Source of the DNA: Acidimicrobiia bacterium
GTDB taxonomy: Bacteria; Actinomycetota; Acidimicrobiia; Spongiisociales; ZC4RG35
NCBI GenBank assembly: GCA_041748855.1
Contig: JBGTCK010000017.1
Location: 8,124-72,123 of the forward strand
Direction: 5' to 3'
Length of the DNA: 64,000 nt
Each line of letters starts with the position of its first letter. Within the stretch, counting starts at the first letter, position 1. This document shows positions 5,557 through 45,683 of this stretch, piece by piece. The position numbers and the translations under genes are program-made. Below the pieces are notes generated by a model that saw nothing but the letters and a program-made list of their open reading frames with translations, was not told where the DNA came from and did not search any database.

Positions 5557-5668
5557 ATCTGCTGCGCTGAAGTGGTCGCTTGGGACCGACCCATCGCGAA
5601 GGCGGTTTAAACGAGCCTTTCTCCCTATGCGGACATATCCCGTCCGCGTTTCGATCTACGCTGCCGCC

Positions 5669-6244: not shown

Positions 6245-6316
6245 TCGAGTGCTCTGCTACTGAGTTAGAGCTGTGGAAGAACGGCCCCTTTCCCGTCAGG
6301 CTGCGATACTTGGCGA

Positions 6317-7966: not shown

Positions 7967-8908
7967 TTGATGGACGTCATGGAATGGCTGTTGGACTCCG
8001 ATCCGGCAATCCGCTGGCAGGTGATGCGCGACCTGGCAGGAGAGCCCACGGAGGTCGTACTTGCCGAGCGCTCGCGCGTGGCTAGCGATGGCTGGGGCGC
8101 AGAGTTGCTCGAGTTGCAGGACCCGGACGGACGTTGGGACGGCGGCACCTATCGACCGGGTTGGGTCGATGAGTCCAAACCCTTCTTCGACGCCTGGACA
8201 GCAACGCACTTCTCGCTCCAACTCCTGCGTGAGTTCGGTCTGGACCCGGACAGCCCCGAGGCACGCGATGCCCTCGCTCTAGTCCGCGGCAACGTCCGCT
8301 GGAACGCGAACGGCGCTCTCTACTTCGAGGGCGAGGTCGAGCCTTGCATCAACGGGGTTGCCCTGGCGAACGGTGCGTACTTCGGTGAGGTAGTCGATGG
8401 GATCGTTGACATCCTCCTGAGCGGTCAACTCGAGGACGGGGGCTGGAACTGCTGGGCCGACTACGGCGCGACGGTGTCGTCATTCCACTCGACGATATGT
8501 GTGCTGGACGGACTGCTGGAATGGGAACTCACCGGCGGCTCGTCGGACGAAGTGGCGACCGCGCGTTCGAAAGGAGAGGAATACCTCCTCGAGCGCGGTC
8601 TGATGCGGACTCGGTCGACGGGGCGGATCATCGACCCCAGATTCACGATGTTCTCGTTCCCGACCTACTGGTACTACGACGTGCTCCGCGCCCTCGACTA
8701 CTTCCGCTCGAGCGGAGCCAAGTTCGACAAGCGATGCACCGGGGCGATCGATCTGGTCATATCGAAGCGCAGGGCAGACGGTCGATGGCCGTTGGAGAAC
8801 ACTCACCAGGGCCCAACCCACCTGGAGATGGACGGAGCGGAAAACGACCCCAGCCGCTGGAACACCCTACGTGCGCTTCGTGTCCTGAACTGGGCCGGAA
8901 CCAGCTAA
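7967..8908 (+). CDS. hypothetical protein
   Basis: Long clean ORF with good codon bias; repeated W/G-rich segments (DGGWNCW, DGRWDGG); no confident family assignment. Confidence 0.45.
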   Translation: MMDVMEWLLDSDPAIRWQVMRDLAGEPTEVVLAERSRVASDGWGAELLELQDPDGRWDGGTYRPGWVDESKPFFDAWTATHFSLQLLREFGLDPDSPEARDALALVRGNVRWNANGALYFEGEVEPCINGVALANGAYFGEVVDGIVDILLSGQLEDGGWNCWADYGATVSSFHSTICVLDGLLEWELTGGSSDEVATARSKGEEYLLERGLMRTRSTGRIIDPRFTMFSFPTYWYYDVLRALDYFRSSGAKFDKRCTGAIDLVISKRRADGRWPLENTHQGPTHLEMDGAENDPSRWNTLRALRVLNWAGTS

Positions 8909-9534: not shown

Positions 9535-10122
9535 ATGGTTGATGAGAAAGTGGATCCGGACCCGCCGCTGCGCTCCGATGCTCGCCGCAACCGGCAACGG
9601 CTTGTCAACGCAGCAACCGAACTGGTTCTCGAGGTGGGCGGCGAACCGGGACGCGACGCTGTGGCCCGACGTGCCGGTGTCGGGATAGCCACGTTGTATC
9701 GCCACTTCCCCGATCAGCAAACCCTTCTGCGGGCCGTCGCGATCGACGTCCTCGATCGGACGATCGCCGCCGGTGAAGCTGCACTCGCCGACTCCGAGGA
9801 CTCTGCCAGCGCCTTACGTCGCTACCTCCACGCAGCGATCGACATCGGGCTCGGTGCCGTCAGCATCGTGCATCCCCTACTCGACAACGTCGACTGGCCT
9901 GAGCAGCGGACCGCAGCACAGAATCTGCTCGAGAGACTTGTCGACGCCGCGCAGCGCGACGAAACGCTCGCAAGCGACATCACTGCCACCGAAATTGCAT
10001 TCGCCACAATCCGGTTCTGCCGACCGCTCGCAATTGGCCTCGACTCCGCCCAAGAACGAGCAATCTCCCATCGACAGCTCGACATCTATATCAATGGTCT
10101 GACCCAAAACCAGGATCGATGA
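9535..10122 (+). CDS. TetR family transcriptional regulator
   Basis: N-terminal HTH RRNRQRLVNAATELVLEVGGEPGRDAVARRAGVGIATLYRHFPDQQTLL; divergent from arr. Confidence 0.8.
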   Translation: MVDEKVDPDPPLRSDARRNRQRLVNAATELVLEVGGEPGRDAVARRAGVGIATLYRHFPDQQTLLRAVAIDVLDRTIAAGEAALADSEDSASALRRYLHAAIDIGLGAVSIVHPLLDNVDWPEQRTAAQNLLERLVDAAQRDETLASDITATEIAFATIRFCRPLAIGLDSAQERAISHRQLDIYINGLTQNQDR

Positions 10123-10785: not shown

Positions 10786-10997
10786 GGTCGGCTAGCACCG
10801 CCAACGATGCGGCTCGCTGCGCCGCGGGAGGATCACCGATGAGTACCACTTGAGGTCTCTCCGTGCAAGTGTGGACGATCACCGACCTCTAAACCTTCGC
10901 TCCGCGGGTAAGACTCGACCCTACGCGTTATCCGCTGTTTAGTTCATGGACGTCATTGGGGTCGACGGGGCTCTCGCCGCTAAAGGGATCTCTTCTC

Positions 10998-18140: not shown

Positions 18141-18510
18141 TAATACGCTTGATTAGCTCAGTGCTATTGGCGTGATCTCCTTGATAATACTGCCTTTGAG
18201 TTACTACCTCCCGGCCTGCCCGAAAAAACCGCCGCTGGCCCCGACAGTCGACCTCGACATTCGAACCGGAATCGTCGTCCTCGGCAATGTCCCGTACGGT
18301 GTGGTACGACTACACAAATGGCTCGACACGAGTGCGGCGCTCTCCCCGACGAGGGTGGCATTGCAGGATCTCGGACGGGTAAATGGCGAACTCGAGCGAC
18401 TGCTAGTCAACTCCCAAGCCTCCGCTGCAGCCGCTGCAAGCGCTGGCGTTTGAATGGCCGGTTGTTTGGGTACGCTTGCTCGTTTCGATAGGACGATTCG
18501 GCTGGGAGCT

Positions 18511-19786: not shown

Positions 19787-22354
19787 ATGTTCACCGACAT
19801 AGAGGGGTCGACGCGCCTGCTCGGGTTACTCGGCGACGAGTATGGACAGCTGCTGGCGGATCACCATCGGCTGATCGTCGCTGCCGCAGAGAAGGAACAG
19901 GGTGTACTGGTCGACACCCAGGGCGACGCCTGCTTCATCGTGTTTCCGACCGCCTCCCAGGCAGTCGCAGCGGCGGCTGAAATTCAGCAAGCCCTGTCCA
20001 CCCATGCCTGGCCGGGCGGGGTCGAAGTCAGAGTCCGGGTGGGCCTCCACACGGGTTCCCCGATACAGATGGACGATCGGTACGTGGGGATGGACGTCCA
20101 TCGGGCCGCTCGAATCTCCGCCGCCGCTCACGGTGGCCAGGTGGTCGCCTCGGCGTCTACCGTCCAGCTGTCGGAAGAGGGCCCATCGTGGCTCGCCCTG
20201 GGCGACTTCCGGCTCAAGGATCTCATGCGTCCCGAGCGCCTCTACCAGCTGGTGGCGACGGGGCTGGCCGAACACCACCCGCCGCTGCGGGCGGATCGAT
20301 GGGGGACGGAGCTCCCCGAACCTCCCACACGCTTTGTGGGTCGGGCCACGGCGGTCGAGGAGGTCCTCGAGATGCTGTCTGGGGAGACCAGATTGGTCAC
20401 ACTGGTCGGGCCGGGCGGGATCGGCAAGACCAGATTAGCGGTCCACGTGGGTCGGTTGTGGTCCGACCGCTTCACCGATGGCATCCAGTTCGTCCCCCTC
20501 GCCGCCCTGACCGAACCGGAGGTGATGACTGCCATCGTGGAGGCGTTGGGGGTTACCCAGATCGGGTCCGACGATCCCATGGGTTTGGTAGTCCAGCACC
20601 TGCGCCATCGCCGGATGCTTCTGATCCTCGACAACATGGAACATCTCGTGCCCGCAGCGGGCCGTCTGGTAGCGGACCTGATGCGCGGCTGCCCGGATCT
20701 GCGCATCGTCGCCACCTCACGTGCTCCGGTCGGTGTCTCAGGCGAGCAGCTGATGAGGGTGCCTGCCCTTGCCCTGCCCTCTGAGGATGTCGAACTCGCT
20801 GCCGCCGCCGAGTTCGAAGCGGTTGCCCTGTTCGTGGACAGGGCCCGGACGGTCGACCCGGGTTTCAGATTGACCGACGGCAACCTCGATGCGGTGGTGC
20901 AGATCTGCCGTCGGCTGGACGGACTCCCGCTCGCCCTGGAGTTGGCTGCCGCTCGGACGGCCGTGCTGGCACCAGCCGAACTCCTCGATCGTCTACGCCT
21001 GGATCTCCTGACAAGCAGTTCGACTGACCTCGACGAGCGGCAGCGTACGTTGGCTTCGACCATCGAGTGGAGCTACCGGTTGCTCGACCACTCGCTACAG
21101 CGAGTATTCCGCGAGTTCTCGGTGTTCGCCGGTGGCGCCACGCTGGAGGACACAGGAGCTGTGATCGACCCGGGTGGTGCGACCGATACCCTCGAGGCGG
21201 TCTCGAATCTCGTCGCCAGCAGCCTGCTGTGGCGTGACGAAGATGAAGGAGGGACGTCGCGTTTTCGGATGCTCGAGATCATTAGAGAGTTCGCCCAGCG
21301 CGAGCTCGACCGCTCAGGCGACCTCCCGGCAGTCGCAGACCGGCACGCCGCCAGATTCGCCGAGTTCCTCGAGACGGCCGAAGAGAAGGTGGACGGACCC
21401 GAAGCATCGGAGTGGATGGCGAGGATCGACGCCGAGATGTCGAACACACGGGCCGCCCTCCGCTGGACCTTGGAGGACCCTCGCGGCTCCAGGCTCGCTG
21501 GTGTGAGTATGGCGCAGTCCTTAGGTTGGTTCTGGTACATTCGCGGCCATGCCAGCGAAGGGCTCCGGTGGCTGGAGTCGGCTATCCTGGCCGCAAACGA
21601 TGCGCCCGGACTCCACCGCATCCGAGTCACCTATTACGCCGGCGCCCTGGCTGAAAGGCTGGGACGGTTCCCCGAAGCAGTGCAGCGGTTCCAACAGACT
21701 TTGGTGCTCTGTCGAGAGTTGGGCGACGAGGCGCGCGCAGGGAGAGCGCTCAACTCGCTGGGAGGCATGGCCGTCGAAATGGGAGAGCACGAAGCGGCGA
21801 CGGGATACCTCGCCGAAGCGGAGGAGATCCTACTCTCTCACGACGACAAGTACGGGCTCGGGGCAAACCGGACAAACCAGTGCGACGTGGCCCTCGCTCG
21901 CGGGGAACTCGACCGGGCCCGACAACTGGGCGAGTCGGCGCTCAGCCTGTTCTCAACGTCGGACGACGCATTCGGGGAGGGCGTGGCTTTGCGACACCTC
22001 ACCAAGGTTGCCTACGCCGCTGGGGACCTGGAAGAGGTCCGAAGGCTGCTAAAAGGCGCCCTCACCAAGGGACTCGAGATCGGGAACCTTGCCGACTCAG
22101 CTCGATGCCTGGAACGGCTGGGCGGTGTGGAGATCGCCTTAGGACGCAGCGCCAAGGGGATCCGACTGGGGGCGGCCGCTCAGCGGCTCCGTAGCGAGGT
22201 CGGCGACCATCTGACACCAGACCGGCTGGCCAGCTTCGAACGAAGCTGGTCGCAGGCTCGACTGGTTCTGGGCGAAGAGGAATATCAGACTGCGTGGGAC
22301 CAGGGTTCCAACATGACCTTCGATCAGGCCGTTGCTTACGGCACTGAGAACTGA
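19787..22354 (+). CDS. class III adenylate/guanylate cyclase domain + STAND/AAA NTPase + TPR repeats
   Basis: N-terminal FTDIEGSTRLL cyclase motif; Walker A LVGPGGIGKTRLA; C-terminal TPR-like repeats; 855 aa. Confidence 0.8.
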   Translation: MFTDIEGSTRLLGLLGDEYGQLLADHHRLIVAAAEKEQGVLVDTQGDACFIVFPTASQAVAAAAEIQQALSTHAWPGGVEVRVRVGLHTGSPIQMDDRYVGMDVHRAARISAAAHGGQVVASASTVQLSEEGPSWLALGDFRLKDLMRPERLYQLVATGLAEHHPPLRADRWGTELPEPPTRFVGRATAVEEVLEMLSGETRLVTLVGPGGIGKTRLAVHVGRLWSDRFTDGIQFVPLAALTEPEVMTAIVEALGVTQIGSDDPMGLVVQHLRHRRMLLILDNMEHLVPAAGRLVADLMRGCPDLRIVATSRAPVGVSGEQLMRVPALALPSEDVELAAAAEFEAVALFVDRARTVDPGFRLTDGNLDAVVQICRRLDGLPLALELAAARTAVLAPAELLDRLRLDLLTSSSTDLDERQRTLASTIEWSYRLLDHSLQRVFREFSVFAGGATLEDTGAVIDPGGATDTLEAVSNLVASSLLWRDEDEGGTSRFRMLEIIREFAQRELDRSGDLPAVADRHAARFAEFLETAEEKVDGPEASEWMARIDAEMSNTRAALRWTLEDPRGSRLAGVSMAQSLGWFWYIRGHASEGLRWLESAILAANDAPGLHRIRVTYYAGALAERLGRFPEAVQRFQQTLVLCRELGDEARAGRALNSLGGMAVEMGEHEAATGYLAEAEEILLSHDDKYGLGANRTNQCDVALARGELDRARQLGESALSLFSTSDDAFGEGVALRHLTKVAYAAGDLEEVRRLLKGALTKGLEIGNLADSARCLERLGGVEIALGRSAKGIRLGAAAQRLRSEVGDHLTPDRLASFERSWSQARLVLGEEEYQTAWDQGSNMTFDQAVAYGTEN

Positions 22355-22530
22355 GAACTCAGCGTCTCCGACCTTCCCGACAAGCCTCGACAGTGCCCGA
22401 CCGTGGCGGGCAAGTCTGCCAGCCACTCACGCGGTCACTCCTGACCACGCAACCACCACCGCCATCGAGCAGACCCAAGTCCCCGATTCGATCATCTCGT
22501 TAACCCATAAGCCACTCGTACGCAGAGGGC

Positions 22531-22727
22531 GCAGTTTCCCAAGTGTTACCTGATGATTTGAAGCTCAGCGGGTAGGACTCGAACCTACAACCAATGGATA
22601 ACAGTCACGCCGATACCGTCCGTGGTCTCAAGGGGTGTCGATTAGTGCCGTTCTCCACCTTTTCGTCCGTCCGTGTTGGCTGATGCTGTCCCGTGCGGTC
22701 TGGTATGGCTACACAAATGGTACACCC
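22531..22727. repeat. copy 1 of the roughly 250-bp tRNA-Asn-fragment repeat (lacks the left TGGCTACA doublet)
   Basis: Shares the flanks ...tttcccaagtg.tacctga.ga..ttg.agctc and cacgccgataccgtccgtg...gctgatgctgtcccgtgcggtctggtatggctacacaaatgg with copies at 23.6 and 25.9 kb. Confidence 0.7.
22566..22604 (-). pseudogene. tRNA-Asn(GUU) 3' fragment (anticodon loop to acceptor 3' strand), degenerate
   Basis: The reverse complement contains T-stem/loop gtaggTTCGAGTcctac and an anticodon-loop remnant; 1-nt deletion relative to copies 2 and 3; no D-arm or 5' half. Confidence 0.5.
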
Positions 22728-22934
22728 GAAGTGCGATGCGGTCGCCGTGAGCTCAGCGATATTGCCGGATCTGCGTGCCTCCACCCCCGACGCGGTCTTT
22801 ACCGAGTAAGGTCGGGGCGAGCCGCCAAAGCACCAAGATGGCCCAGTCCATGAGTGCTTCCCGGCTGTGTCTGTATCGCCATTGACAAGCAGGGCGTGCG
22901 GCGTCAATCGCACGAAGCCAGAAGGAGACCTTTG

Positions 22935-23531
22935 ATGGCAGATCAAATCGAGGACATCATCGGGGACTATCGGGCATTCGCCGAGCAGCAGCGAGACCGA
23001 CTGGCGACACGCGGCATCGACATCACCCCGTACGGGCTCAGCCATCTCGCATACCGGGTCCCAGAGTGGGACCAGTACGTGCATGTGCGGGGACTCATCG
23101 AACGCCACGCCGTCGCCAATCGCGAGAACGTCTGGAACGGTCGCCCGATCTCCTTGATCGTTCCCGCCGAGCCGCTCGAAGTCCTCGACGGCAAGATCGT
23201 CCCCCTGATCGAGCTCATCCCGCCCGTGCACCAGCGCGTCTACAAGATGGGGTTGGAACACCTCGGCCTCGTAATCGGCGACACTTTCGATGCATTTGTC
23301 AGAGCCCACAAGCCCGTGTTGACGGGACAGCAATTCCAGGGCCCCAACAGCACACCCGACCCCGTATACATCTTGTTCGAGGACTTCACACACGTGAAGT
23401 TCTATCGACTCTCACTGAGGGCATCCGTCGAGCTGGATTCGGGCCCGTTCGACGACGGGTTCCATCACGTCGACGACTGGGTGCCACAACGGCTGGTGAC
23501 GGCGACCGGCCCGAACCCGCTGCCCCGATGA
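22935..23531 (+). CDS. YecM-like (VOC-superfamily) protein
   Basis: ITPYGLSHLAYRV...NGRPISLI...IELIPP...GLEHLGLVI parallels E. coli YecM blocks ITPLTADHISLRC...NGRPICLF...VELPWP...GWEHIEIVL; start at MADQIEDI. Confidence 0.5.
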   Translation: MADQIEDIIGDYRAFAEQQRDRLATRGIDITPYGLSHLAYRVPEWDQYVHVRGLIERHAVANRENVWNGRPISLIVPAEPLEVLDGKIVPLIELIPPVHQRVYKMGLEHLGLVIGDTFDAFVRAHKPVLTGQQFQGPNSTPDPVYILFEDFTHVKFYRLSLRASVELDSGPFDDGFHHVDDWVPQRLVTATGPNPLPR

Positions 23532-23645
23532 CGGATCTCGGCAAAGTGCGAGTGCCCAGGTGAACGCCAACGCCCGACGTTCCGTTTCCTTGACCGCTGT
23601 GCTGGCGGAGTTTCCTGGGCGGCTTGGTCAGCAACGGGAAACTGG

Positions 23646-23897
23646 ATGGCTACAGGTTGGCTACGCACGAACCGTTTGAACGCCAAAGCGAAAGTCGCAT
23701 TTTCCCAAGTGCCTGATGAAATTGAGGCTCCGCGGGTAGGACTCGAACCTACAACCAATGGATTAACAGTCACGCCCACACCGTCCGTGTGGTCTCAGGG
23801 GTGTCGGTTAGTGCCTTTCTGTCTACCTTTTCGTGCCCTACGTGTTGGCTGATGCTGTCCCGTGCGGTCTGGTATGGCTACACATTTGGCTACACCT
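23646..23897. repeat. copy 2 of the tRNA-Asn-fragment repeat (TGGCTACA doublets on both sides)
   Basis: atggctacaggttggctac ... core ... atggctacacatttggctacacc; about 90% identical to the copy at 25.9 kb. Confidence 0.75.
23728..23769 (-). pseudogene. tRNA-Asn(GUU) 3' fragment
   Basis: Minus strand reads CTGTTAA (anticodon loop, GTT) - tccat - tggtt - gtaggTTCGAGTcctac - ccgcgga - g; the 5' half does not pair, so this is not a complete tRNA. Confidence 0.6.
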
Positions 23898-24361
23898 TCC
23901 CACGAGCCTCCAAATCAGATCACCTGACGACCCACGACCTGGATCAAAGCGAACATCGGTGCTACGAGAACCATTGCTGTTGCGATTGTGCGCACGCGGC
24001 CTGGTGATGTCATCTTCACGACGGCTACGGGAATCAAGCCTGCCGCAAGTAACAACGGAACCGAAATAGCTAATCCCCCGGGTCCGGGTTCGGCTGAGAA
24101 CGCCGCTCCGATTGACAAGGCGGCGCTCAGATAGAGTAGGACGAAGTAGCCCCCGACCTTCAGCCACTCGACTTCCCCCCATCTCATCTGGAGATGGTAA
24201 ACGTTTGCCCCACACGGTGAAGCCGTCATACCCGGCGACGCGGTCGGCAATTGGAACCACAGGTGCTCTGCGTCCCTTGATCTCAGCATCGACTGCGTTC
24301 GTGAAAAGGTCACTCCCGTATGACGGTGGATGTGCCGACTTAGGCGCGCAGCCGGTGTGCA

Positions 24362-25117
24362 CTACTGGACTTCTGCTGTTAGCAACCGGTAGGCGGCGCG
24401 GCCTCGGGCAGCAGCCTCTGCCCCGAGAATCTGCCAGGCTGGATTGTCGGGGTCGTCCATCTCAGTCCGTGAGCGCAGACGCTGCCTGTCCTTACGGTCG
24501 AGTGCGGCAGCCACTCCCCCAGGATCATCCATGATGCTGAGCAGAAAGGCGAGGTCGGCTCTTTGGGCGTCGGGTGCATCATCGACTCCGACGGCTTCGG
24601 CCTTAGCAATGATGGCGCCCAGCAGCGATGGTCGAGGAACCAAACCTTCGGCATCACCAACACGCACTGGAACCAACTCGGTTCGAATGAGGGCTTGTGT
24701 GCCGCCTGGCACCTCCAGCGTCCTACCCGGCGGAGTGGTTGTCAGGTCGGCTCGCGGTCCAAGTCCTTCGGGTGCAAGCACGTCCACTGAGACGCCTTCG
24801 CGCTCATAGCGATGCGCCAGGCCGTCCGCCGAGAAACCTACAACTACAAAACCACGCTCCTCGATGGACTCGACAAAACTTCGGATCGCTCCGGTGACAA
24901 CTCGAGCGTCAACGAGCACATCGAGGTCAGTAGACACACGAGGAGGGCTCGCTGCCTGTTCGAGCGCGTGCAGGAAAACCATCTGTCCGCCGACGAGTGT
25001 CCACTCCCCTTTTCGCACTTCGGTCAGTTCGACAAGAGTTTCCCAAAGGTGGCGACTCTGGTCGGGATAGGTGGGCAACTCCACCGGTTCACGATCCAGC
25101 ACCGGCCACTCGGTCAT
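24362..25117 (-). CDS. AbiEii-like nucleotidyltransferase (putative type IV TA toxin)
   Basis: Minimal NTase motif LVGGQMVFLH...STDLDVLVD (hG[GS]...DhD); start at MTEWPV gives an ATGA overlap with the upstream gene. Confidence 0.5.
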   Translation of the reverse strand: MTEWPVLDREPVELPTYPDQSRHLWETLVELTEVRKGEWTLVGGQMVFLHALEQAASPPRVSTDLDVLVDARVVTGAIRSFVESIEERGFVVVGFSADGLAHRYEREGVSVDVLAPEGLGPRADLTTTPPGRTLEVPGGTQALIRTELVPVRVGDAEGLVPRPSLLGAIIAKAEAVGVDDAPDAQRADLAFLLSIMDDPGGVAAALDRKDRQRLRSRTEMDDPDNPAWQILGAEAAARGRAAYRLLTAEVQ

Positions 25118-25788
25118 CTTGCCTCCAGCCTTTCGAGAAGCGCTCTCCCAGCTCTCCTTGATCGCTTGTCCGAGGAGTCGAGGAGATCGATGGCCACGAC
25201 CGGAAGCGGCGCCACCTTTTGGTTGGGGTCGAAAGGCCACACCGCGTCGTCCACCACTCTGATGTAGACGTTTGGCTGGTCGGGGTCCGATTCGAGGGCA
25301 AGACGCCTCACGACACCGTCGACTTCTGAGGCCGCCAAGTACCCCTCAACGACATCTCCGGGAATGAGATCGGCGCGGTGCTCGTCGACAGCACTGGCTC
25401 CTGACCTCACGAAACCCGGTAGACCCGCCAGCCGATCCAACACTGAAGGGTGGGCGTAGAAGCGACGTTCGTCTCCTCGGGCTCGCAGCTTGGCCACGAC
25501 TGACTCCAGACCCTCTTCGAGTCGTCGTCTTGCCCGAAGTAGCTCTACCGCTGATACCTCCGGTTCGTCATCGTTGGCGAGAGCAAGCAGCGCCCAAGCG
25601 GACCTCGAACTCCAAGGTCGGCCCACGTCCTGTTGGCGTCGTTGCGCTTCACGAACCGATCCCCGCTCCACGATCCACGCCCGACCCACTTGTTCCCCAC
25701 GAAGTAGCCCGTCGGCAAGCATCTGGCGAACCCGCCTAGGGCTGACCGCCAGTTCTTCTGCTACTTCAGAAACACTCAGGAGCGACAT
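25114..25788 (-). CDS. AbiEi-like antitoxin (N-terminal wHTH transcriptional regulator)
   Basis: N-terminus MSLLSVSEVAEELAVSPRRVRQMLADGLL (HTH); 224 aa; translationally coupled to the downstream NTase. Confidence 0.5.
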   Translation of the reverse strand: MSLLSVSEVAEELAVSPRRVRQMLADGLLRGEQVGRAWIVERGSVREAQRRQQDVGRPWSSRSAWALLALANDDEPEVSAVELLRARRRLEEGLESVVAKLRARGDERRFYAHPSVLDRLAGLPGFVRSGASAVDEHRADLIPGDVVEGYLAASEVDGVVRRLALESDPDQPNVYIRVVDDAVWPFDPNQKVAPLPVVAIDLLDSSDKRSRRAGRALLERLEAR

Positions 25789-25890
25789 GATTTCATAATC
25801 CTACCGATATCGGTAGTATTATGTCAACACATCTGTTTAGCGGAGGGACCCCGGGAGATCGTCGAACAACAACACCATTTCGGAGAGCGG

Positions 25891-26147
25891 ATGGCTACAG
25901 GTTGGCTACACCCGAACCATTCGTACACAGGGGCGCATGTCGCATTTTTCCAAGTGCTACCTGAAGAAATTGGAGCTCCGCGGGTAGGACTCGAACCTAC
26001 AACCAATGGATTAACAGTCACGCCGATACCGTCCGTGTGGTCTCAACGGGTGTCGATTAGTGCCGTTCTGTCTACCTTTTCGGTCCGTGCGTGTTGGCTG
26101 ATGCTGTCCCGTGCGGTCTGGTATGGCTACACAAATGGCTACACCTG
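25891..26147. repeat. copy 3 of the tRNA-Asn-fragment repeat (TGGCTACA doublets on both sides)
   Basis: atggctacaggttggctacacc ... core ... atggctacacaaatggctacacctgcc. Confidence 0.75.
25976..26017 (-). pseudogene. tRNA-Asn(GUU) 3' fragment
   Basis: Identical in architecture to the fragment at 23728-23769. Confidence 0.6.
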
Positions 26148-26477
26148 CCCGAATGACCTAATTGCCACTCAGCGGTCGGCTGCTTGCATCCGCGACCACG
26201 ATACGTCAAGGAAATGGGGTGACGCGGCGCTCGCGATTCGGTCGAGTTCGGGTCGTCGCTGAGCTCGAGCTGGTGGTCACCGCCCCACCCCTCCGTCGCG
26301 ACCAGATTCCAATCTTGGGCGGGTCACATTGGGTCGTCGGAGGCTGAGCCGTCACGACGCGCGAGCCTCCACGAATGCACACCACGACCTATCTTCAGTT
26401 CGAGGTCCCGCGACCGATAATGGCCATGGTGAGTTCATGAAGCGAGGTCCGCAATCGACATCGTTCGTCTAATCCGA

Positions 26478-29907: not shown

Positions 29908-31773
29908 TCATGGCGTGTCGTTTTTGGAAGCTGTTGCCTGTTGTTGGGAGGATTTGTCAGGTTCTGGATCACAACCCAGGTAGCCGTCGGGGCATCGGGG
30001 CCGATGAGGACAGGGGTCGAGTTCTGGTGGAGGGGCGACCCCGCCGTCTTCTCCGGTTTGCGTCCTAAAACCGGGGTCCCATCCCAGGCTCTCTCGTTGC
30101 CTGACGGCGGCTCCGTAGGTTCCGTACTCCCGAGCCAGGCGATCGAGATCCTCTACGTTTTGGATTGTGGCGACGATTCCATGTTCAGTCTCAGCGACGA
30201 GGTCACCTTCGATCAGTTTCCTGACGTGTCTTCCGACCGTGGCTGGACTGACTCCCATCTCCGTAGCAATCGCCCTCCGCGACGGCTGTGCACCTATCAT
30301 CAGAAGCTCAAGTATCCGCCACCCGTTCTTTCCAATGCCGTAGTGGTATGAGTATCGGTGCCAGTTCGTAATGTATTTGCCTCGGACGGGGCCTCTAAAG
30401 AGGTCGTGTCCGATTGGGAGCTGGGGGTGTTGCAATACCTGAACGACTCCCCCATCCAAAGTAGGTGTGGACTCGTTCAGATCTTGCAATGCTGTTTGAG
30501 GTATCTGCAGTCTCCACCTGCTGGGTCGTTGTATCGAGTCACCCTTAAATAGAAGTTGGACCCATCCCCTGTGTTGCAACTCCTTTAGAGCTGTCATGAC
30601 AGTTTCGCTGCTTGAATAGCCGGCTTCCTGTTTGATACCCCTTACTCCTTTGGCGAAGTTGCTGGGTCCACCGGTACGCATTGCGATGCGGATAAGTGCT
30701 TCGAGGACTGTGATTTGTCGTTTTCCGGAGTGTCCTGACCACTTGAGGCTGTGTGCGACCACGCGGAGCTCGGTCAGATACTCCATCGCTTCTTCTCGGT
30801 TGTTGAAGGGGCTTTTCGATGGGCGAGGGTTCTGCGATCCTCTTTTCAGGCCACTGCGGATGGTGGGTTCTGCTTCAGTCCAGCTAAGTCCACACAAGGA
30901 AGCAGCCTCCTCGAGGTAGTGCCAGAAGATGTCTTCGTCTAGCCCGCCCTTTCCAACCAGTTCCCCGAGGGCACAAGAGGAGACAAAGAGCTGCTGGTTC
31001 CGCGTTCCCCTTTTTGCAGTCGCTGTCTTCTCGTACTCCCCTGCCACCGCAGCCCATACATATGGAGTGACTCCTTGAGGGGCGGGGAGGGCCTGCAGGT
31101 CGGCCACTAGGCCCTCGGTGAGCGCTGAGGGAAGTTCGGGGATCCTTCGATCAATATTTGTGGTCCACTCATAGACCGACCCGCTGACGTGGCGGCTTGG
31201 AGGCGCCGCAACATACCCGCCCCTCCCCCTCACGTCGATACCGGGAAAGCCATCGAGCACCGGCAGCGAGTTCCCGACTCGCCAGCCGTCAGCTCGAAAG
31301 TAGAGGTGGCGGCCACCTCCACCTGTCTGAACTTCGGCGGTCTCCGGCCAGGTGCCATAGGTCTCGACAAAGTGTCGCTCTGAGTCGTCGGACCCATGGC
31401 GCGGATCGAAGTCGAGGACGACCAATTCTCCAGTTGCTATCGCGAGATTGGAGTTCGGCGATCCCTTGAACACCTGGCGCATCAAGTATGCGTTGGAACT
31501 GGCGGCCTTACGCCATCCTCTCCGCCGGGGGTGTTTCCCCGGGCTCTCGCACTTGGAACCTCTCGGACACTCACATATCAAAGCTCCGTCGCTTTGGACG
31601 ACGCCGAACAGCATCACCATTCGCATGCTGAGGCGCGAGTACTGGTCAATCGCTGCGATGGTGGAAGTCAGATGATTGTCGTCGGGTGGCTTGCTCGTTT
31701 CACTCATAGCTCGAACAGTGCACCAAGCGGCGCGTATACTCCAGTAGACGAGCGTTACTTGACCGTGACGCAT
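29908..31773 (-). CDS. bifunctional DNA primase/polymerase (Prim-Pol) replication protein with C-terminal wHTH
   Basis: Prim-Pol N-terminal domain (LFGVVQSDGALICECPRGSKCESPGKHPRRRGW...DVRGRGGYVAAPPS); C-terminal MarR-like RRAIATEMGVSPATVGRHVRKL; gene GC content is visibly lower than the surroundings. Confidence 0.75.
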   Translation of the reverse strand: MRHGQVTLVYWSIRAAWCTVRAMSETSKPPDDNHLTSTIAAIDQYSRLSMRMVMLFGVVQSDGALICECPRGSKCESPGKHPRRRGWRKAASSNAYLMRQVFKGSPNSNLAIATGELVVLDFDPRHGSDDSERHFVETYGTWPETAEVQTGGGGRHLYFRADGWRVGNSLPVLDGFPGIDVRGRGGYVAAPPSRHVSGSVYEWTTNIDRRIPELPSALTEGLVADLQALPAPQGVTPYVWAAVAGEYEKTATAKRGTRNQQLFVSSCALGELVGKGGLDEDIFWHYLEEAASLCGLSWTEAEPTIRSGLKRGSQNPRPSKSPFNNREEAMEYLTELRVVAHSLKWSGHSGKRQITVLEALIRIAMRTGGPSNFAKGVRGIKQEAGYSSSETVMTALKELQHRGWVQLLFKGDSIQRPSRWRLQIPQTALQDLNESTPTLDGGVVQVLQHPQLPIGHDLFRGPVRGKYITNWHRYSYHYGIGKNGWRILELLMIGAQPSRRAIATEMGVSPATVGRHVRKLIEGDLVAETEHGIVATIQNVEDLDRLAREYGTYGAAVRQRESLGWDPGFRTQTGEDGGVAPPPELDPCPHRPRCPDGYLGCDPEPDKSSQQQATASKNDTP

Positions 31774-31900: not shown

Positions 31901-32800
31901 ATGGACCCGTTCTTGAGCCGAATCATCGGACTTGTTGCAACGCCGGTGCCGGTGAACGCCACGTCATACCAACTCCCCACCGAGGTGAAACTTGAGGAGA
32001 CCCTCGACGGCTGGGTGCTCGCCTGGCGTCGCGGCGGTCGGCGGAAGCAAGTCGGCGCCAGCAACGAACAATTGCTAGCCGAGTTCATGTCTCTGCAGGA
32101 CTCCGAGCCGGACCAAATCGCCGAGTTCGCATCTGAGTGGGGAGCCCTGCAACTCTGTAAACACGGCAAACCCCAGTCTCATTTACCTTGGCGTCTTTGG
32201 ACCGAACTCGACGAATTAGAAGCTGCACCCTGCGATGTGAACCGGGCCTATCCCGGAGGATGGAGACGCGAACCAATCTCTCGGTGGAATCACTATTCGT
32301 CGCAGGCAGGAGCCATCCGTCGCCTGGGGCGCAACCTAAGCTCCGGGAACTCGATCTCAATTGTGGATCTCGAACCCATGGAAGATCTATTTCCGCCCTA
32401 CTTCCTCGACCGGACAATTCCCGGAATTAGCGAACCGATCTCCGAGCCACCTGAATTCACCCGGCAGGATCATGAGAGGGTCCTGGCGACCGCTCTCCAC
32501 AGTTGGTTAGGTATGGGCGATGTCGGTTTCCATGTGAATTGGCGAGAGGGCAAGAGCTCAGTTCAATTCGGTGGTACCGGACTGTTCGGAGCTCTAGCCC
32601 TCCAACTGACACTCGTCTGCACCGGTGCCGGCGCGCTCTTCTTGTGTTCCGAATGCAGACTGCCCTACATCCCCGAACAGCAACCTCGCTCAGGTGAAAG
32701 GAACTACTGCCTCGACTGCCGCGATAAAGGCATACCTGCGAGAAACCGCCAGCGTGCACTACGCGCCCGACTTCGCGCTGAACGAAAATCTGAGATGTAA
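31901..32800 (+). CDS. hypothetical protein with C-terminal Cys4 zinc ribbon
   Basis: CSECRLPY...NYCLDCRDKG; divergent from the prim-pol gene. Confidence 0.4.
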   Translation: MDPFLSRIIGLVATPVPVNATSYQLPTEVKLEETLDGWVLAWRRGGRRKQVGASNEQLLAEFMSLQDSEPDQIAEFASEWGALQLCKHGKPQSHLPWRLWTELDELEAAPCDVNRAYPGGWRREPISRWNHYSSQAGAIRRLGRNLSSGNSISIVDLEPMEDLFPPYFLDRTIPGISEPISEPPEFTRQDHERVLATALHSWLGMGDVGFHVNWREGKSSVQFGGTGLFGALALQLTLVCTGAGALFLCSECRLPYIPEQQPRSGERNYCLDCRDKGIPARNRQRALRARLRAERKSEM

Positions 32801-32954
32801 CGCTCAAGTCACGGTCAACACCTGGACTTCTGCGCTTCGGTTGGCCACAGTGACCTCGGAAGGCGTAACACAGAGACGAGGAAAATTGAGCAACCGAACT
32901 ACAGGAGCGACGATCCCGCCGGAAACCGAGGATGTGCCGCTAGATCCAGACACG

Positions 32955-33188
32955 ATGCTGGCCGACTGGCTTCGGCATACCAGTGCACTAACCGTGCCAG
33001 TCTCCGCAGCAGCGGAGATCCTCGGAATCGGACGCACCACCGCGTATGAGTCAGCAAAGAGGGGTGAGATCCCATCGCTGCGACTAGGACGGCGGCTGGT
33101 GGTGCCCGTCGAGGGGCTCCGCGCGATGCTCGGTGTCCGGTTCGTTGGCCAGGGTGAGGTCGTCCCCAACCCAGAGCTGGGAGATTAA
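32955..33188 (+). CDS. xis: excisionase/Xis-like HTH DNA-binding protein
   Basis: LTVPVSAAAEILGIGRTTAYESAKRGEIPSLRLGRRLVVP is the canonical MerR-type excisionase HTH; start chosen at MLADW. Confidence 0.6.
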   Translation: MLADWLRHTSALTVPVSAAAEILGIGRTTAYESAKRGEIPSLRLGRRLVVPVEGLRAMLGVRFVGQGEVVPNPELGD

Positions 33189-33346
33189 AAAATGTCGCCA
33201 GCGAAAGACATCGTTTCGCGACCAATGGACTGGCTGTCACACGTTCCGTCAACCACTACCAGCAGAAACTGGGGATGTGTAGCCGGATGTGTAGCCATAG
33301 CCCGCCAAATCCGGCTCACGCAGTCCTCTCCGACCCAAGATGATCG

Positions 33347-34322: not shown

Positions 34323-35492
34323 GTGCCGAGCATGACGGTATACAAACGATCCGGAGCGAAGTCTTGGTCCGTCCTAGTGGAATTCGGACGCGGCGCTGGC
34401 CACCGTCGTCGCGTTTATGAAGGAGGCTTCCGCACCAAACGTGAGGCGCTTGCGAGGGAAGTCGCGATCAAGGGAGACATGGCGAACGGCAGCTGGGTTG
34501 ACCTCTCAAACACGACCGTCGGCGACTACATGAAGAGCTGGCTTCATCAGCACGGCCACAACCTCAAGCCGACCACGGTCCAGTCCTATTCGGCAAACCT
34601 GAGGAATCATGTACTCCCCCAGCTCGGCCACATCCAACTCCAAGAACTCACCGCTGCACACCTTAACGACTTCTATGCCACGCTCCTCACCCAAGGACGA
34701 GTCAAGACCGGGTCTGACAAGGGCGGACCCCTGTCACCAACCACAGTCCGCTACATCGCCACCATCGTTGGAAAGAGCCTCCAAGACGCCCTCGAATCGG
34801 GTCTCGTTATCCGCAACGTCGCAGTCGCCGCACGCAAACCGCGCACGAGTCGAGAGGCGAACCAGAAAGTAAAGACCTGGTCCGGGCCTGAAGTGGCACG
34901 GTTCCTCGAATCCACATCCGAGGACCGACTTCACCCACTTTGGGTGCTCTACGCGACAACAGGACTCCGCCGGGGAGAAGCGCTAGGACTCCGATGGGAA
35001 GATATCGACCTCTCCCGCGGCCAGGCTTCCATACGCCACAACCTCGTAGTCGTGCGAGGCGGCCTCGAGTTCGGATCTCCGAAAAGTGGACGAGGCAGGC
35101 ACATCTCCTTGGCAACACAAACTGTCAACGCCCTCAGAGCATGGCGAGCTACTCAGGTAGCCGAAAAGCTGGCAATCGGCGCCGTATGGGCGGACCCACT
35201 AGGCCTTGTGTTTACACGCGAGGACGGATCGCCCATTCACCCAGACCGAGTCACCGACGCCTTCCGACGCAGCCAGAAGACCACTGAACTCCCAAAGATC
35301 ACGCTGCACCAGTTACGCCACACGTGGGCAACACTCGCCCTCCAAGCAGGCGTTCAGCCCAAGATCGTGAGTGAAAACCTGGGGCACTCTTCAATTCGCA
35401 TCACCATGGACATTTACAGCCATGTCTTACCCACAATGACATCTGACGCCGTCGCAAGGGTGGCCGATGCAATCTATGGGCAAGATTTATGA
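34323..35492 (+). CDS. int: tyrosine-type site-specific integrase
   Basis: N-terminal SAM-like domain; C-terminal catalytic LRHTWATLALQAGV...LGHSSIRITMDIYSHV (R..HxxR..Y). Confidence 0.9.
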   Translation: MPSMTVYKRSGAKSWSVLVEFGRGAGHRRRVYEGGFRTKREALAREVAIKGDMANGSWVDLSNTTVGDYMKSWLHQHGHNLKPTTVQSYSANLRNHVLPQLGHIQLQELTAAHLNDFYATLLTQGRVKTGSDKGGPLSPTTVRYIATIVGKSLQDALESGLVIRNVAVAARKPRTSREANQKVKTWSGPEVARFLESTSEDRLHPLWVLYATTGLRRGEALGLRWEDIDLSRGQASIRHNLVVVRGGLEFGSPKSGRGRHISLATQTVNALRAWRATQVAEKLAIGAVWADPLGLVFTREDGSPIHPDRVTDAFRRSQKTTELPKITLHQLRHTWATLALQAGVQPKIVSENLGHSSIRITMDIYSHVLPTMTSDAVARVADAIYGQDL

Positions 35493-36541: not shown

Positions 36542-38260
36542 CTAGAAGCCTGCGACGTCCGCCGTGAAATATTCGTCGGCGACCGAGCGGTCAATGACCA
36601 CCGGAGTGATCGCTCCACCAACGGGGATGACCGCCGTCGTGAGTTCGCCGGTAGAGAGGCGGTAGTGCCAGATCGGAGTAGTTCCTTCACCGTATGAATA
36701 CCCGGTGGCGAACAGCTGGTCGTTGTCAGGCGCCCACGTCACGAAATGGATCGGGCCGGACCCTGGATCGGCGAAGGTCGTCGTTACTCCCGACTCCCGG
36801 TCGAGTAGGAGAACCGAGGCGCCGTTGAACGCGTCCCCCAACGGGGCGACGATCGCCGCCAGATAGCGGCCATCGTCGGAGAAAGCGTTTTCGCCGAACC
36901 TCATACCCTCAGGTGCGTCGTACCGCTGAGAAGTCAGGTCGGAAGTGTTGGTGAGGTTGAGTATGTCGCAAGGTTCGCTGCACCAAGCAAGCGTGTCGCC
37001 GGAGACGTCGTGAGCAAAACCAGGTCCCCCTCCCAATAGCGTCCGGACTTCACCGGTAGTCCCATCCCATAGTTCGATTCCCTCGTCAGAAGACAACGCG
37101 AGACCACCGTCGATACCAAACACGGGAAGGGAATCAGAGTTCAGCTCCCTGGGTTCGGACGTGGTCTCGCCAGCCGAGTTCACCTGCCATACCGTTGGCC
37201 TGCCCAAGCCGACCCGACCTCCCGGATAATCGACCAGCCAGACGTTGGTCTCAGTGGCCGACGGAACGAACGCTGTGGCGGAACCCAGTGAAAGGCTTTG
37301 ACGGGTTGCAATATCGACTGCGTAGATGTTCTCCCAGCCAACCACCAACTTGTCGCCAATCCGGACCATTGAGAATGCCTCATCTCCAGGCCGCTGGCCC
37401 TCCACGAGACTCGCCGCCGCGCGCCTGGCATCAGGGTCGAAAGCAATCAGCCCCTCGAGTCCGTCGTCCAAGAGAAGGACCATCCCGGTCTCCTCTCCAA
37501 AGATTGGGCCATCAGCAGGCACTTGAGCAGCCAGGGTGGTGGTCGTTGGTGCGGTGGTGGCTACGGTGGTTGCCGGCCCGACGTTCTCGTCCTCTACCCA
37601 GACGACATAGCTGAGTGATGACCCTTTGTATTCGGCGGTCAGGCTCCAGCATCCAGAATCGGGAAAATCGAGTCCGACTACGGTCACCGACTCGTGCGTC
37701 GGCTGCGTCATGAAAGGATTGAATCCGGTTCCACCCGTCTGACTCGCTTCGAACTGCGGAGCGGTTCCACTGAGATGTTCGGCTGTGACAGTGAACTCGC
37801 CAGGGTCGTCCGCCGAGTAGTTCGCACTCCACCAAAACGTTCTCTCAGTAAGGGAGCCGTCAGCGCCTTTTGGTAGGTCACTCCAGACCTCGCCGCCAGG
37901 GTCGATCAGCGTCCAAAGGTCGGGTGTACCGAACCACACATCGTCATACACTTCCGGTGGATCGTCGGGAGCGGCGCTTGCAGGAGTGAAGGCGGCCTCT
38001 CCCGGCACCGTGACCGGGCACGACGCCGGCACACCAGCCACTGTCGGAGAGACGACAGGCCCATCGGGAGTCTCGCCCGGGGACCAGACAAGGGCGATCA
38101 CCACGAACCCCACCACCGTTACTGCTGCCAATGACCACGCCGAAACCAGACTGGTGCGCCGTCTTCGTGACAGAAGTCGGGTAAAAGCCGGTCGCTCTGC
38201 TTGGCGTCCGATCTCGGCGGCGTACTTCCCGGCGTGGGAGGCAATCTCCTCAAAGCTCAT
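36542..38260 (-). CDS. putative anti-sigma factor with extracytoplasmic beta-propeller-like domain
   Basis: Short cytoplasmic N-terminus, single TM helix (LVSAWSLAAVTVVGFVVIALV), then a large extracellular domain; directly downstream of an ECF sigma factor; start chosen at MSFEEIA. Confidence 0.5.
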   Translation of the reverse strand: MSFEEIASHAGKYAAEIGRQAERPAFTRLLSRRRRTSLVSAWSLAAVTVVGFVVIALVWSPGETPDGPVVSPTVAGVPASCPVTVPGEAAFTPASAAPDDPPEVYDDVWFGTPDLWTLIDPGGEVWSDLPKGADGSLTERTFWWSANYSADDPGEFTVTAEHLSGTAPQFEASQTGGTGFNPFMTQPTHESVTVVGLDFPDSGCWSLTAEYKGSSLSYVVWVEDENVGPATTVATTAPTTTTLAAQVPADGPIFGEETGMVLLLDDGLEGLIAFDPDARRAAASLVEGQRPGDEAFSMVRIGDKLVVGWENIYAVDIATRQSLSLGSATAFVPSATETNVWLVDYPGGRVGLGRPTVWQVNSAGETTSEPRELNSDSLPVFGIDGGLALSSDEGIELWDGTTGEVRTLLGGGPGFAHDVSGDTLAWCSEPCDILNLTNTSDLTSQRYDAPEGMRFGENAFSDDGRYLAAIVAPLGDAFNGASVLLLDRESGVTTTFADPGSGPIHFVTWAPDNDQLFATGYSYGEGTTPIWHYRLSTGELTTAVIPVGGAITPVVIDRSVADEYFTADVAGF

Positions 38261-38780
38261 GATCGACCAAACCCTTGGCTGCCAGTTCTCGGTGCAATCT
38301 CGCCCGCCCTTGATGAAGGAGCGCTTTGACTGTCCCCTCGGCGATACCCAGAGTGTTCGCAACCTCGGAGATGGAAAGATCCTCGATGTAGTGCAGGGCA
38401 ATCGCTTGGGCCTGTCGAGATGGAAGACGTCTCACTTCCCTCCAGAAGTCCTCAGACCCCAAATCGGCATGCTGAGTCGAGATCGCGCCCTCAGGTCCGA
38501 TTCTCAACCTTGCCCTAGTCTCGGACCGCAACCGGCGAAGCCACGAACGAGCAAGATTCATGGCCACCCGCCGTACCCAGCCATCAGGACGATCCATCTC
38601 CGACACCCGCGTCCAATCCCTGTGAGCACGGAGGAAAGCCTCCTGAGCAAGATCCTCCGCAACGCTGCGGCTACCACTCAAGGCGTAGACCAAGCCAACC
38701 ACCGCCGCGTAGTTCTCGCGATAAAGGACTTCGAACGAATCGGGGACCCGAACGTCAGCCACATCATCCGATTCGAACAT
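38250..38780 (-). CDS. ECF (sigma-70 family) RNA polymerase sigma factor
   Basis: Region 2 (LAQEAFLRAHRDW) and region 4 HTH (LSISEVANTLGIAEGTVKALLHQGRARL). Confidence 0.8.
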   Translation of the reverse strand: MFESDDVADVRVPDSFEVLYRENYAAVVGLVYALSGSRSVAEDLAQEAFLRAHRDWTRVSEMDRPDGWVRRVAMNLARSWLRRLRSETRARLRIGPEGAISTQHADLGSEDFWREVRRLPSRQAQAIALHYIEDLSISEVANTLGIAEGTVKALLHQGRARLHRELAAKGLVDHEL

Positions 38781-39258
38781 CCAACCTCACTAGTCCGAAG
38801 ACACATCACACACTAAGAACGCTTTGACCAGCTGGAAGGTTTAGACGAATCCTCACGAAACTCCATGCGACCCACTGAATCGTTGAGCTAGTGCCAGTAT
38901 TGCCCAGGACATCAGCGGGCCGTGGTGGTCTGCAACTACTGCGGAAGGGATATCCCAAAAGAGTACCCCGTTCCGCAACCTTGGACTGCCAGCGATAGGT
39001 ATCCCATGATCGGCTGTTGTGCTGGATTTTGGGAAACGGATGGCTACACACATGCCTACACCTGCCGTGAGAGTCTGTGCATCCTTGCTACGGAGCGAAA
39101 TTGGCCACGGGCACTGGCCTGAGTGGCATATGGTCGGATGTCACGCCCCGCCCGCTAGCTGCTAGTCACCGGGGTTCGCCGGGACGGGGATGATGGCGTC
39201 TGGTTTGATGAACGTGGCGTGAGCCGGGTCGTGGCAGCTGGCGCGGTCAGCCCGGCGA

Positions 39259-39978: not shown

Positions 39979-40067
39979 AACGCTGAGATGTTACCGAATG
40001 TCTGTTTGGTTCCCTACAGCGCACAAAGCGCGCCGCGAACCTCCGAATCACCCAGATCACCCGCGCG

Positions 40068-40140
40068 CAATCCGGCAGTTCCGAACCGCACGCCGACGTG
40101 CCGATCTGCTCGGTTCGAGGACGGGTGCGTTATCGCTCGA
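40068..40140. repeat. intergenic repeat family 2, copy A
   Basis: tccggcagttccgaaccgcacgccgacgtgccgatctgctcggttcg...tgcgttatcgctc; 8-bp inverted arms ccgaaccg/cggttcgg around a 21-nt spacer. Confidence 0.7.
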
Positions 40141-40185: not shown

Positions 40186-40602
40186 TCAGTAGATGTGGGT
40201 TGCCTCGACCCATCGAACAGATGCCCAGATACCAAGTCCGGACGCGACGATCATTACGTAGAAGGCGACTCCAAGAGATGACCCGACCCCGCCTCTCGCC
40301 GCCACGCCAACAGCAAATAGGGCGAATAATCCTGCAGCGACACTCAAACCGAAGATTGCCCAGCGAGCTAGTCGGTTCTTAGGTGCCGCCACGCCCACGC
40401 CAGCCACAACCAGGCCAGCGACCAGTTGTAGTCCTCCAAGTCCGGCGACGTACGCTCCACTTAATCCATCACTCGTCCACGGCAATAGTCCAGAAGCTGC
40501 AAGGGCCACTCCTGCTACCACAGCGGCGCTCCGCGTCAGCATGGATAGAACCCTAATGCCAGACACTCGATCCGCTCTGGAACGGCAGTTTCCGAACCCC
40601 AC
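40186..40602 (-). CDS. integral membrane protein (4 TM)
   Basis: Four hydrophobic helices in 138 aa. Confidence 0.5.
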   Translation of the reverse strand: MGFGNCRSRADRVSGIRVLSMLTRSAAVVAGVALAASGLLPWTSDGLSGAYVAGLGGLQLVAGLVVAGVGVAAPKNRLARWAIFGLSVAAGLFALFAVGVAARGGVGSSLGVAFYVMIVASGLGIWASVRWVEATHIY

Positions 40603-40650
40603 GCCGACGTGCCGATATCGGGCACTCCCTGAAATGCTCGTTATGGCTCA
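40581..40650. repeat. intergenic repeat family 2, copy B (divergent)
   Basis: ggcagtttccgaaccccacgccgacgtgccgat...ctcgttatggctc. Confidence 0.55.
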
Positions 40651-41503: not shown

Positions 41504-41529
41504 ACCAGCCGGCGAGCGCCTAAGTGGCG

Positions 41530-41600
41530 TTCTGCTCGGTTTGGGGGTCGGTGCGTAATCGCCCATATCGCTTGATCTGTGCGGCTACACACAGCGATCC
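41530..41600. repeat. intergenic repeat family 2, copy C (3' portion only)
   Basis: ctgctcggtttgggggtcggtgcgtaatcgcccatatcgcttgatctgtgcgg parallels the 3' part of copy E; followed by a ggctacaca motif. Confidence 0.55.
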
Positions 41601-45645: not shown

Positions 45646-45683
45646 ATCCTAAGAGACATCGACTTGGGTTGGGGGAAGAAATT

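Follow-up and report, generated by a model that had tools for sequence, protein, structure and literature searches.

Tandem tRNA-Asn-derived repeats in an Acidimicrobiia genome as probable hybrid attachment junctions of a composite island

We analyzed a stretch of 64,000 nucleotides from an Acidimicrobiia bacterium (GenBank assembly GCA_041748855.1, contig JBGTCK010000017.1, positions 8,124 to 72,123), referred to here as the window, which contains three direct repeat units of ~270 nt that each carry the 3' part of a tRNA-Asn gene on the minus strand. These units are very probably hybrid attachment (att) junctions in a composite island that grew through successive site-specific integrations into the 3' part of tRNA-Asn(GTT). 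This reading draws on the anatomy of the repeats, the tRNA origin of their core, the junction types found in related genomes, and the co-occurrence of a short arm motif with one clade of tyrosine integrases.

The three units lie at 22506-22732, 23637-23901, and 25882-26150, all in direct orientation within 3.7 kb. Their alignment gives pairwise identities of 88-94% (218-265 aligned columns); units 1 and 3 are 94% identical, and unit 2 differs from both by 10-12%. Read on the minus strand, a unit comprises a ~125-nt P arm that opens with GGTGTAGCCAnnTGTGTAGCC, a 45-nt core (GACTGTTAATCCATTGGTTGTAGGTTCGAGTCCTACCCGCGGAGC), and a ~95-nt P' arm that closes with GTGTAGCCAACCTGTAGCC. Unit 2 (P' arm 23637-23726, core 23727-23771, P arm 23772-23897) and unit 3 (P' arm 25882-25974, core 25975-26019, P arm 26020-26146) are full P-core-P' arrangements with an exact core. 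In both, a repeat doublet is present on either side of the core, at 23647-23665 (P') and 23875-23894 (P) in unit 2 and at 25892-25910 (P') and 26124-26143 (P) in unit 3, and all four arm repeats share one orientation. Unit 1 has an imperfect core (22563-22606), in which one nucleotide of the anticodon loop is missing (CTGTT-AT) and a G of the acceptor strand is replaced by T. Its P arm (22607-22727) retains one intact half of the doublet (22706-22713), the second half being mutated to TGGTACA, and only the first ~55 nt of its P' arm remain (22506-22562), with the P' doublet gone. An earlier reading of the window, made from the sequence only, had described three tandem copies, with doublets on both sides of copies 2 and 3 and the left doublet absent from copy 1, and our alignment agrees with that description. 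The motif TGGCTACA occurs at 12 sites in the window, against 0.64 expected, and the 26-nt string covering the T-arm and acceptor strand occurs four times at ≤3 mismatches, compared with 0 occurrences in 100 shuffles.

By its identity to intact genes, the core derives from the 3' part of tRNA-Asn. It spans, from tRNA position ~30, the anticodon loop, the variable loop, the T-arm, the 3' strand of the acceptor, and the discriminator. A 35-nt core pattern was searched in public genomes, with one genome per species, and matched 90 stretches, nearly all of them from Acidimicrobiia metagenome-assembled genomes (MAGs). ARAGORN assigned 71 of the 103 exact matches to intact tRNA-Asn(GTT) genes, all in MAGs of Acidimicrobiia, and the other 32 are fragments, which bears out the initial identification of a tRNA-Asn(GUU) 3' fragment in each copy. 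The complete 45-nt core aligned at 100% to tRNA-Asn loci of relatives. In an intact gene, such as that of L062, the common block extends from the anticodon stem (about position 29-30) to the discriminator. According to the Williams 2002 classification, integrases with a crossover in the anticodon loop reportedly duplicate just such a block, and the crossover in the present elements presumably falls within the core. Direct repeats matching the tRNA 3' part in the window comprise the three 45-nt cores and one degenerate copy. Neither ARAGORN nor Rfam detected a tRNA anywhere in the window, as the sequence-only reading had stated for tRNA-Asn. No Rfam family was found in the whole window at the gathering threshold, or in the 22.4-26.3 kb region at E≤10, a negative that is uninformative on tRNA origin since a 45-nt 3' fragment cannot reach tRNA covariance-model scores. 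For this reason, identity to intact genes was taken as the test of tRNA origin.

Profiles of the whole unit, of the P arm with core (P+core), and of the P' arm recovered all three junction types of site-specific integration from relatives. The attL type, an intact tRNA followed by a P' arm, is present in L025, L028, L042, L057, L061, L085, and others. The attR type, P+core followed by unrelated DNA, is represented by ~25 copies that are 75-80% identical to those of the window over 170 nt. Full P-core-P' arrangements were found in L011_L024, L021, L029, L036_L045, L042_L074, L081, and L083. At the 29 loci with P-arm units, the unit was on the tRNA strand in every unit-tRNA comparison (29/29) and downstream of the tRNA in 28, the single exception being a match that overlaps the tRNA itself. 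Scanning metagenomes with the P/core junction added 26 further contigs that carry units in the same layout. The occurrence of tRNA+P', P+core, and P-core-P' arrangements, all co-oriented, supports the proposal, first made from the window, that the units are attP-like junctions of serial integrations. Because units are co-oriented downstream of tRNA-Asn across relatives, the unit is not a dispersed repeat. Two scans of viral contigs, one for the P arm and one for the P/core junction, yielded 0 matches.

The most likely recombinase for the units is a tyrosine integrase of 386 aa encoded at 34332-35492 on the plus strand. It combines an N-terminal arm-DNA-binding domain, a SAM-like domain (E=4e-14), and a catalytic domain (Phage_integrase, E=6e-25); the match to Arm-DNA-bind_4 is weaker and sub-threshold (E=0.00096). 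It is the candidate recombinase for att sites armed with GTGTAGCC, and the contig with its gene is present in the Logan assembly of SRR28170462. A tblastn search with this integrase found no second copy in the window, and a search of viral contigs returned relatives at ≤41% identity only, none of them linked to this att family. Another GTGTAGCC doublet (TGTGTAGCCGGATGTGTAGCC, 33275-33300) is situated on the integrase strand 1.05 kb before the gene, from which an extra open reading frame (ORF) separates it; we infer this doublet to be an integrase operator or an extra arm-type site.

The three closest integrase homologues with fetched DNA context, L092 (67% identity), L093 (71%, truncated), and L168 (59%), all have a TGTGTAGCC-N3-5-TGTAGCC doublet 66-104 nt upstream of the integrase gene and on the same strand. 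The doublet motif is absent from two further families of integrases that target this tRNA (L027/L052 type and L022/L175 type). Furthermore, an alignment of 25 units shows that the doublet forms the best-conserved columns of the P arm and that conservation ends abruptly beyond it. Together with the doublet upstream of the integrase gene in the window, these observations favor the earlier suggestion that the doublets are candidate arm-type sites. They point to GTGTAGCC as the arm-type site of this integrase clade, one that would also act at the promoter of the integrase itself. In L093, the truncated integrase lies 6-9 kb from three units. The homologue L092 is encoded on a contig of 10.5 kb that both starts and stops within the core, its two termini sharing 14 nt. 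Bounded by a P' arm on one side and a P arm on the other, this contig appears to be one whole element.

The integrase gene of the window belongs to a larger module that also encodes an HTH_17 protein of 144 aa (32754-33188, plus strand) with a weak excisionase match, a candidate excisionase for this module, and a Prim-Pol/winged-helix replication protein (29908-31773, minus strand). No capsid or FtsK-type transfer gene was detected in the module. The module is not a recognizable actinomycete integrative and conjugative element (AICE): an integrase and a Prim-Pol protein are present, but the ORFs scanned at 26-46 kb, several of which have no match, yielded no FtsK/SpoIIIE or other transfer domain.

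We propose that each incoming circle carried an attP composed of a ~125-nt P arm starting with the GTGTAGCC doublet, the 45-nt core, and a ~95-nt P' arm ending with a doublet. A circle that enters the tRNA would regenerate it and push older elements away from it, and entry at the tRNA or at any resident junction would leave P(new)-core-P'(old) junctions between modules. Units 2 and 3 would represent such junctions, as would unit 1 with its truncated P' arm. The integrase would act from the larger module that contains the putative excisionase and the Prim-Pol replication protein. The two small modules between the units, one with a YecM gene and the other with a helix-turn-helix (HTH) gene pair, have no integrase and would be cis-mobilizable passengers. 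Recombination between the units flanking such a module would release a small circle with one attP, whose re-integration would need the integrase in trans; in the case of units 2 and 3, the circle would measure 2.25 kb and contain the HTH pair with a single attP. These two units may still be active, because all four doublets and the exact core are kept. The tRNA-proximal end of the array would have been lost later or separated by a rearrangement.

Several observations weigh against this account. The integrase gene adjoins no unit, unit 3 being 8 kb away on one side and a P' remnant 10 kb away on the other, and the evidence for the predicted binding of the integrase to GTGTAGCC is their co-occurrence. 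With no intact tRNA-Asn in the window, attL is not observed here, and neither an excised form nor an empty site of this genome was seen. About half of the internal junctions in relatives are P+core without a recognizable P' arm, for example at 2312-2481 and 4384-4542 in L036_L045 and at 6214-6383 and 9706-9875 in L023_L003, among others. A simple tandem model predicts a P' arm at these junctions unless P' arms decay or are dispensable; fast decay of P', the existence of several P' families, or dispensability of P' are possible explanations. Finally, L092 may be no circle, as its 14-nt terminal overlap could have arisen where the assembly broke at a repeat.

The module between units 1 and 2 measures 1.2 kb, and its sole gene encodes a YecM/VOC-family protein of 198 aa (22935-23531, plus strand), for which a Pfam match (E=6e-15) confirms the YecM-like label first given to it. 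This gene recurs at 92% nucleotide identity in the tRNA-Asn array of L081, where the surrounding DNA is unrelated. The 2.2-kb module between units 2 and 3 holds a two-gene pair on the minus strand (24362-25788) and a further, unassigned ORF (23838-24362). One gene of the pair (25114-25788) encodes a 224-aa protein with an HTH_17/excisionase-type N-terminus, and the other (24362-25117) a 251-aa protein without a family match. This pair had been labeled an AbiE-like toxin-antitoxin system, a label that could not be confirmed: Pfam, PADLOC, and NCBIfam give only the HTH_17/excisionase-type N-terminus and nothing for its partner, in which a GG...DxD nucleotidyltransferase-like motif was seen by eye only. 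Apart from this excisionase-type HTH, the same three resources revealed no recombinase in the 22.7-25.9 kb region, and both modules are flanked by att-type units (1/2 and 2/3).

Small modules of this kind are common in relatives. Among the 56 modules in all fetched arrays, sizes range from 0.68 to 10.4 kb around a median of roughly 2.1 kb; many of the modules contain a single gene. An all-against-all comparison of these modules identified a cyclase block that is 90% shared by L093 and L042_L074, in surroundings that are unrelated, and that is bounded by truncated P arms without cores. Blocks shared in this way between different neighbors are suggestive, and only suggestive, of independent module mobility.

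These modules can also be read in terms of cassette exchange. In one version, tRNA-Asn of the Acidimicrobiia would be the site of an integron-like exchange platform operated by a lambda-type arm-binding integrase. Modules with one gene and a conserved 170-nt P+core site apiece would be taken up, rearranged, and passed between species as mini-circles without the help of any autonomous element; we regard this as unlikely. A second version, in which the conserved 170-nt P+core would take the role of attC and single-gene cassettes would be captured and shuffled individually at tRNA-Asn on an integron-like platform instead of being left over from larger elements, is in our view slightly less probable still. 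In favor of such cassettes, the modules are mostly 0.7-4.6 kb in size and often hold one gene, the functions being unrelated (lipoprotein, NmrA-like, aldo-keto reductase, YecM, or cyclase), and some recur beside different neighbors. P+core is far better conserved than P' and stands at the tRNA-distal end of every module, and an integrase-only element of 2.4 kb directly follows the tRNA in L022_L047, L175, and L185. However, the GTGTAGCC motif is missing from the resident integrase of L022-type arrays, and the integrase of the window has a lambda-type arm-binding N-terminus and is not of the IntI type, scoring 56 and 33 bits with the NCBIfam integron-integrase models against cut-offs of 265 and 435. 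The units show no conserved hairpin or attC-like structure (0 compensatory pairs), and the genes are in mixed orientation (YecM on the plus strand, the HTH pair on the minus strand) with no common promoter evident. Moreover, the coreless, truncated P arms that bound the block shared by L093 and L042_L074 point to inheritance or homologous exchange, not clean excision. An integron in the strict sense was rejected on the type of integrase, the lack of a hairpin attC, and the mixed gene orientation.

The unit could instead be the gene of a structured tRNA-like non-coding RNA, or a dispersed repeat resembling a miniature inverted-repeat transposable element and unrelated to integrases, given that its 170-nt P+core is 75-80% conserved across many MAGs and includes the T-arm hairpin. 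This is very improbable. The RNAalifold consensus of 16 diverse units reaches -13 kcal/mol with 0 compensatory pairs beyond the invariant tRNA T-arm, so the conservation is of primary sequence, as expected for protein-binding DNA, and a structured RNA was rejected on this lack of covariation. In addition, the units match no Rfam family even at E≤10, are never dispersed, being all co-oriented downstream of tRNA-Asn, and co-occur with a specific integrase clade. Local duplication of one att junction by unequal crossing-over or replication slippage would fit the close spacing, direct orientation, and 88-94% identity of the units, but is just as hard to credit, since it would have copied the intervening DNA, which is unrelated (YecM versus the HTH pair), relatives hold different modules between equivalent units, and the divergence of unit 2 from units 1 and 3 fits independent origins better.

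On the reading of the units as junctions of serial integrations, the island would extend roughly from 10.9 kb to 45.8 kb of the window. The sequence-only reading had placed its left chromosomal boundary at copy 1, as a B-core-P' junction at about 22.5 kb, and this assignment does not hold. Unit 1 keeps ~55 nt of P'-derived sequence, unlike the DNA downstream of tRNA-Asn in island-free relatives; this sequence and the 94% identity to unit 3 indicate an internal P-core-P' junction with a truncated P' arm, not a chromosomal one. Furthermore, two remnants lie to its left, both in the same orientation as the units. The first is a P-arm remnant at 18273-18323 (minus strand, E=1e-6) that covers model positions 6-59, including a mutated doublet. 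On its core-ward side (18190-18272, minus strand), a string GGTTCGAATGTCGAGG resembles a decayed T-loop, a match too weak to score; it suggests that the remnant may be a whole unit with an internal deletion of ~85 nt. The second is a degenerate tRNA-Asn T-arm and acceptor at 10899-10924 (minus strand, GTAGGGTCGAGTCTTACCCGCGGAGC, 24/26 bases), the leftmost copy of the core and a candidate for the distal end of the island.

Base composition and flank synteny also place the left edge of the island near 10.9 kb or beyond it to the left. Most of the 10-48 kb region has a GC content of 0.57-0.60 (0.66 at 20-22 kb), compared with 0.61-0.63 in the flanks. The SnoaL and patatin genes at 0.3-1.7 kb of the window have counterparts 2.5-6 kb downstream of tRNA-Asn in six relatives. 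A GNAT acetyltransferase gene at 5627-6244 (plus strand) is 57% identical to one within a P'/P-bounded module of L022_L047 (8117-8734), and given this homologue, the variable region may reach to the left of 10.9 kb.

On the right side, the sequence-only reading had noted partial copies at 39.0 and 45.7 kb. The former (39015-39061, minus strand) is the start of a P arm, consisting of the doublet region without a core, and is probably a decayed junction between two modules. The latter (45680-45772, minus strand, doublet at 45685-45703) is a P' arm alone; it occupies the expected place of attL, with no tRNA adjoining. To these partial copies we add the two remnants on the left and the doublet at 33275-33300. 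An intact tRNA-Asn with its flank, aligned locally to 45.65-46.0 kb, gave no match. Beyond 48.5 kb, the window contains metabolic housekeeping genes, and it lacks dnaG, the gene upstream of tRNA-Asn in about 48-60 relatives. The tRNA end of the array has been deleted or moved by a rearrangement, as the sequence-only reading had supposed. A DUF222/HNH (REP13E12-like) gene lies at 47174-48475 (plus strand), 1.4 kb past the P' remnant and on the expected tRNA side; a homologue with 28-30% identity is located in L068 (159-1388), 84 nt upstream of an intact tRNA-Asn. This DUF222/HNH element might have been involved in the loss of the tRNA end.

The organization of the units resembles that of known attachment sites. 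In attP sites of the mycobacteriophage L5 or lambda type, the core is the 3' part of a tRNA from the anticodon loop to the 3' end, paired arm-type repeats are present in both arms, and the tRNA is regenerated upon integration. The system described here shares the arm-binding N-terminal domain of the integrase and the tRNA core flanked by paired arm repeats. It differs in that phage structural genes are absent, the integrase gene is not beside attP and has an upstream doublet of its own, all four arm repeats are co-oriented, and the arm sites are predicted. The ssrA islands of Dehalococcoides, each of which reportedly carries its own integrase, are similar in that they stand in tandem at one small-RNA gene, are delimited by direct repeats of the 3' end of that gene, and occur in a lineage that is uncultured or environmental. 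Their target is tmRNA, whereas here it is tRNA-Asn, and most modules here lack an integrase.

Tandem accretion at one site is also known from the integrative and conjugative elements and integrative and mobilizable elements of Streptococcus, which accrete with cis-mobilizable elements (CIMEs) (PMC5704250). As with CIMEs, att-flanked modules without integrase or transfer genes form a tandem series with an integrase-bearing element at a single target, the internal junctions consist of hybrid att sites, and mobilization in trans would be expected. The differences lie in the Acidimicrobiia host, the tRNA-Asn 3' target, the very small and often single-gene modules in a row, and the fact that no conjugation module was detected. 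The tycheposons of Prochlorococcus provide another parallel, with successive integrations at a tRNA, partial tRNAs between elements, and scattered, degraded remnants (bioRxiv 10.1101/2020.12.28.424599). Both systems comprise tyrosine-recombinase elements at tRNA genes that carry an integrase, an excisionase, primase-type replication genes, and cargo, a likeness judged by organization only. They differ in phylum and integrase lineage, and the Acidimicrobiia elements have long, conserved arms with explicit arm-type doublets and mostly integrase-less modules.

We conclude that these elements form a new att/integrase family of a known kind, marked by tandem accretion of mostly integrase-less modules, in an understudied class. 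The Acidimicrobiia are widespread and mostly uncultured, and their mobile elements are poorly described. The documented hotspot at tRNA-Asn, with its att/integrase family, GTGTAGCC-armed attP, and 45-nt tRNA core, provides an att model that permits automatic annotation of island boundaries and cargo in MAGs of this class; in the window, the cargo includes cyclase/NB-ARC genes, extracytoplasmic function (ECF) sigma factors, the YecM protein, and the HTH pair. The mechanism is an expected one, a known route of island building that introduces no new principle for general biology. The high share of very small integrase-less modules is notable and offers a natural test of cassette-like passenger behavior.

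Further features of the arrays concern integrases and cargo. A 2.4-kb mini-element, 99.8% identical between one MAG and two metagenome contigs (L022_L047 3874-6308, L175 4116-6550, and L185 645-3079), consists essentially of an integrase of another family and a small membrane-like ORF, without the GTGTAGCC motif. On one side of it is the intact tRNA-Asn and on the other an array of units of the GTGTAGCC type. The stretch from the 18.3-kb remnant to unit 1 of the window contains an adenylate-cyclase/NB-ARC/TPR gene (19787-22354, plus strand). This gene has homologues inside the arrays of L036_L045 and L023_L003, which likewise argues against a chromosomal boundary at unit 1, and cyclase genes are also found between units in L093. 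Adenylate/guanylate-cyclase-domain cargo thus recurs between units of several unrelated arrays and is located at 604-3332 in L093, 12241-12762 in L036_L045, and 6975-7343 in L023_L003; in the window, the cyclase is fused to NB-ARC/AAA and TPR domains, and the 20-22 kb region has the highest GC content of the window (0.66).

Two ECF sigma-factor genes lie inside the island, at 38250-38780 and 42752-43267 (both on the minus strand), so that the island carries its own transcription factors. Homologues are found near tRNA-Asn fragments in L005 and L084. The same part of the island contains a second repeat family of ~75-100 nt, with the consensus ...CCGGCAGTTCCGAACCGCACGCCGACGTGCCGATCTGCTCGGTT.GGGGATCGGTGCGTTATCGCTC..., in four plus-strand copies (40060-40138, 40571-40649, 41517-41589, and 46031-46134). 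Two of these copies lie ~50 nt upstream of plus-strand ORFs, and the family could represent promoters, operators, or another kind of site.

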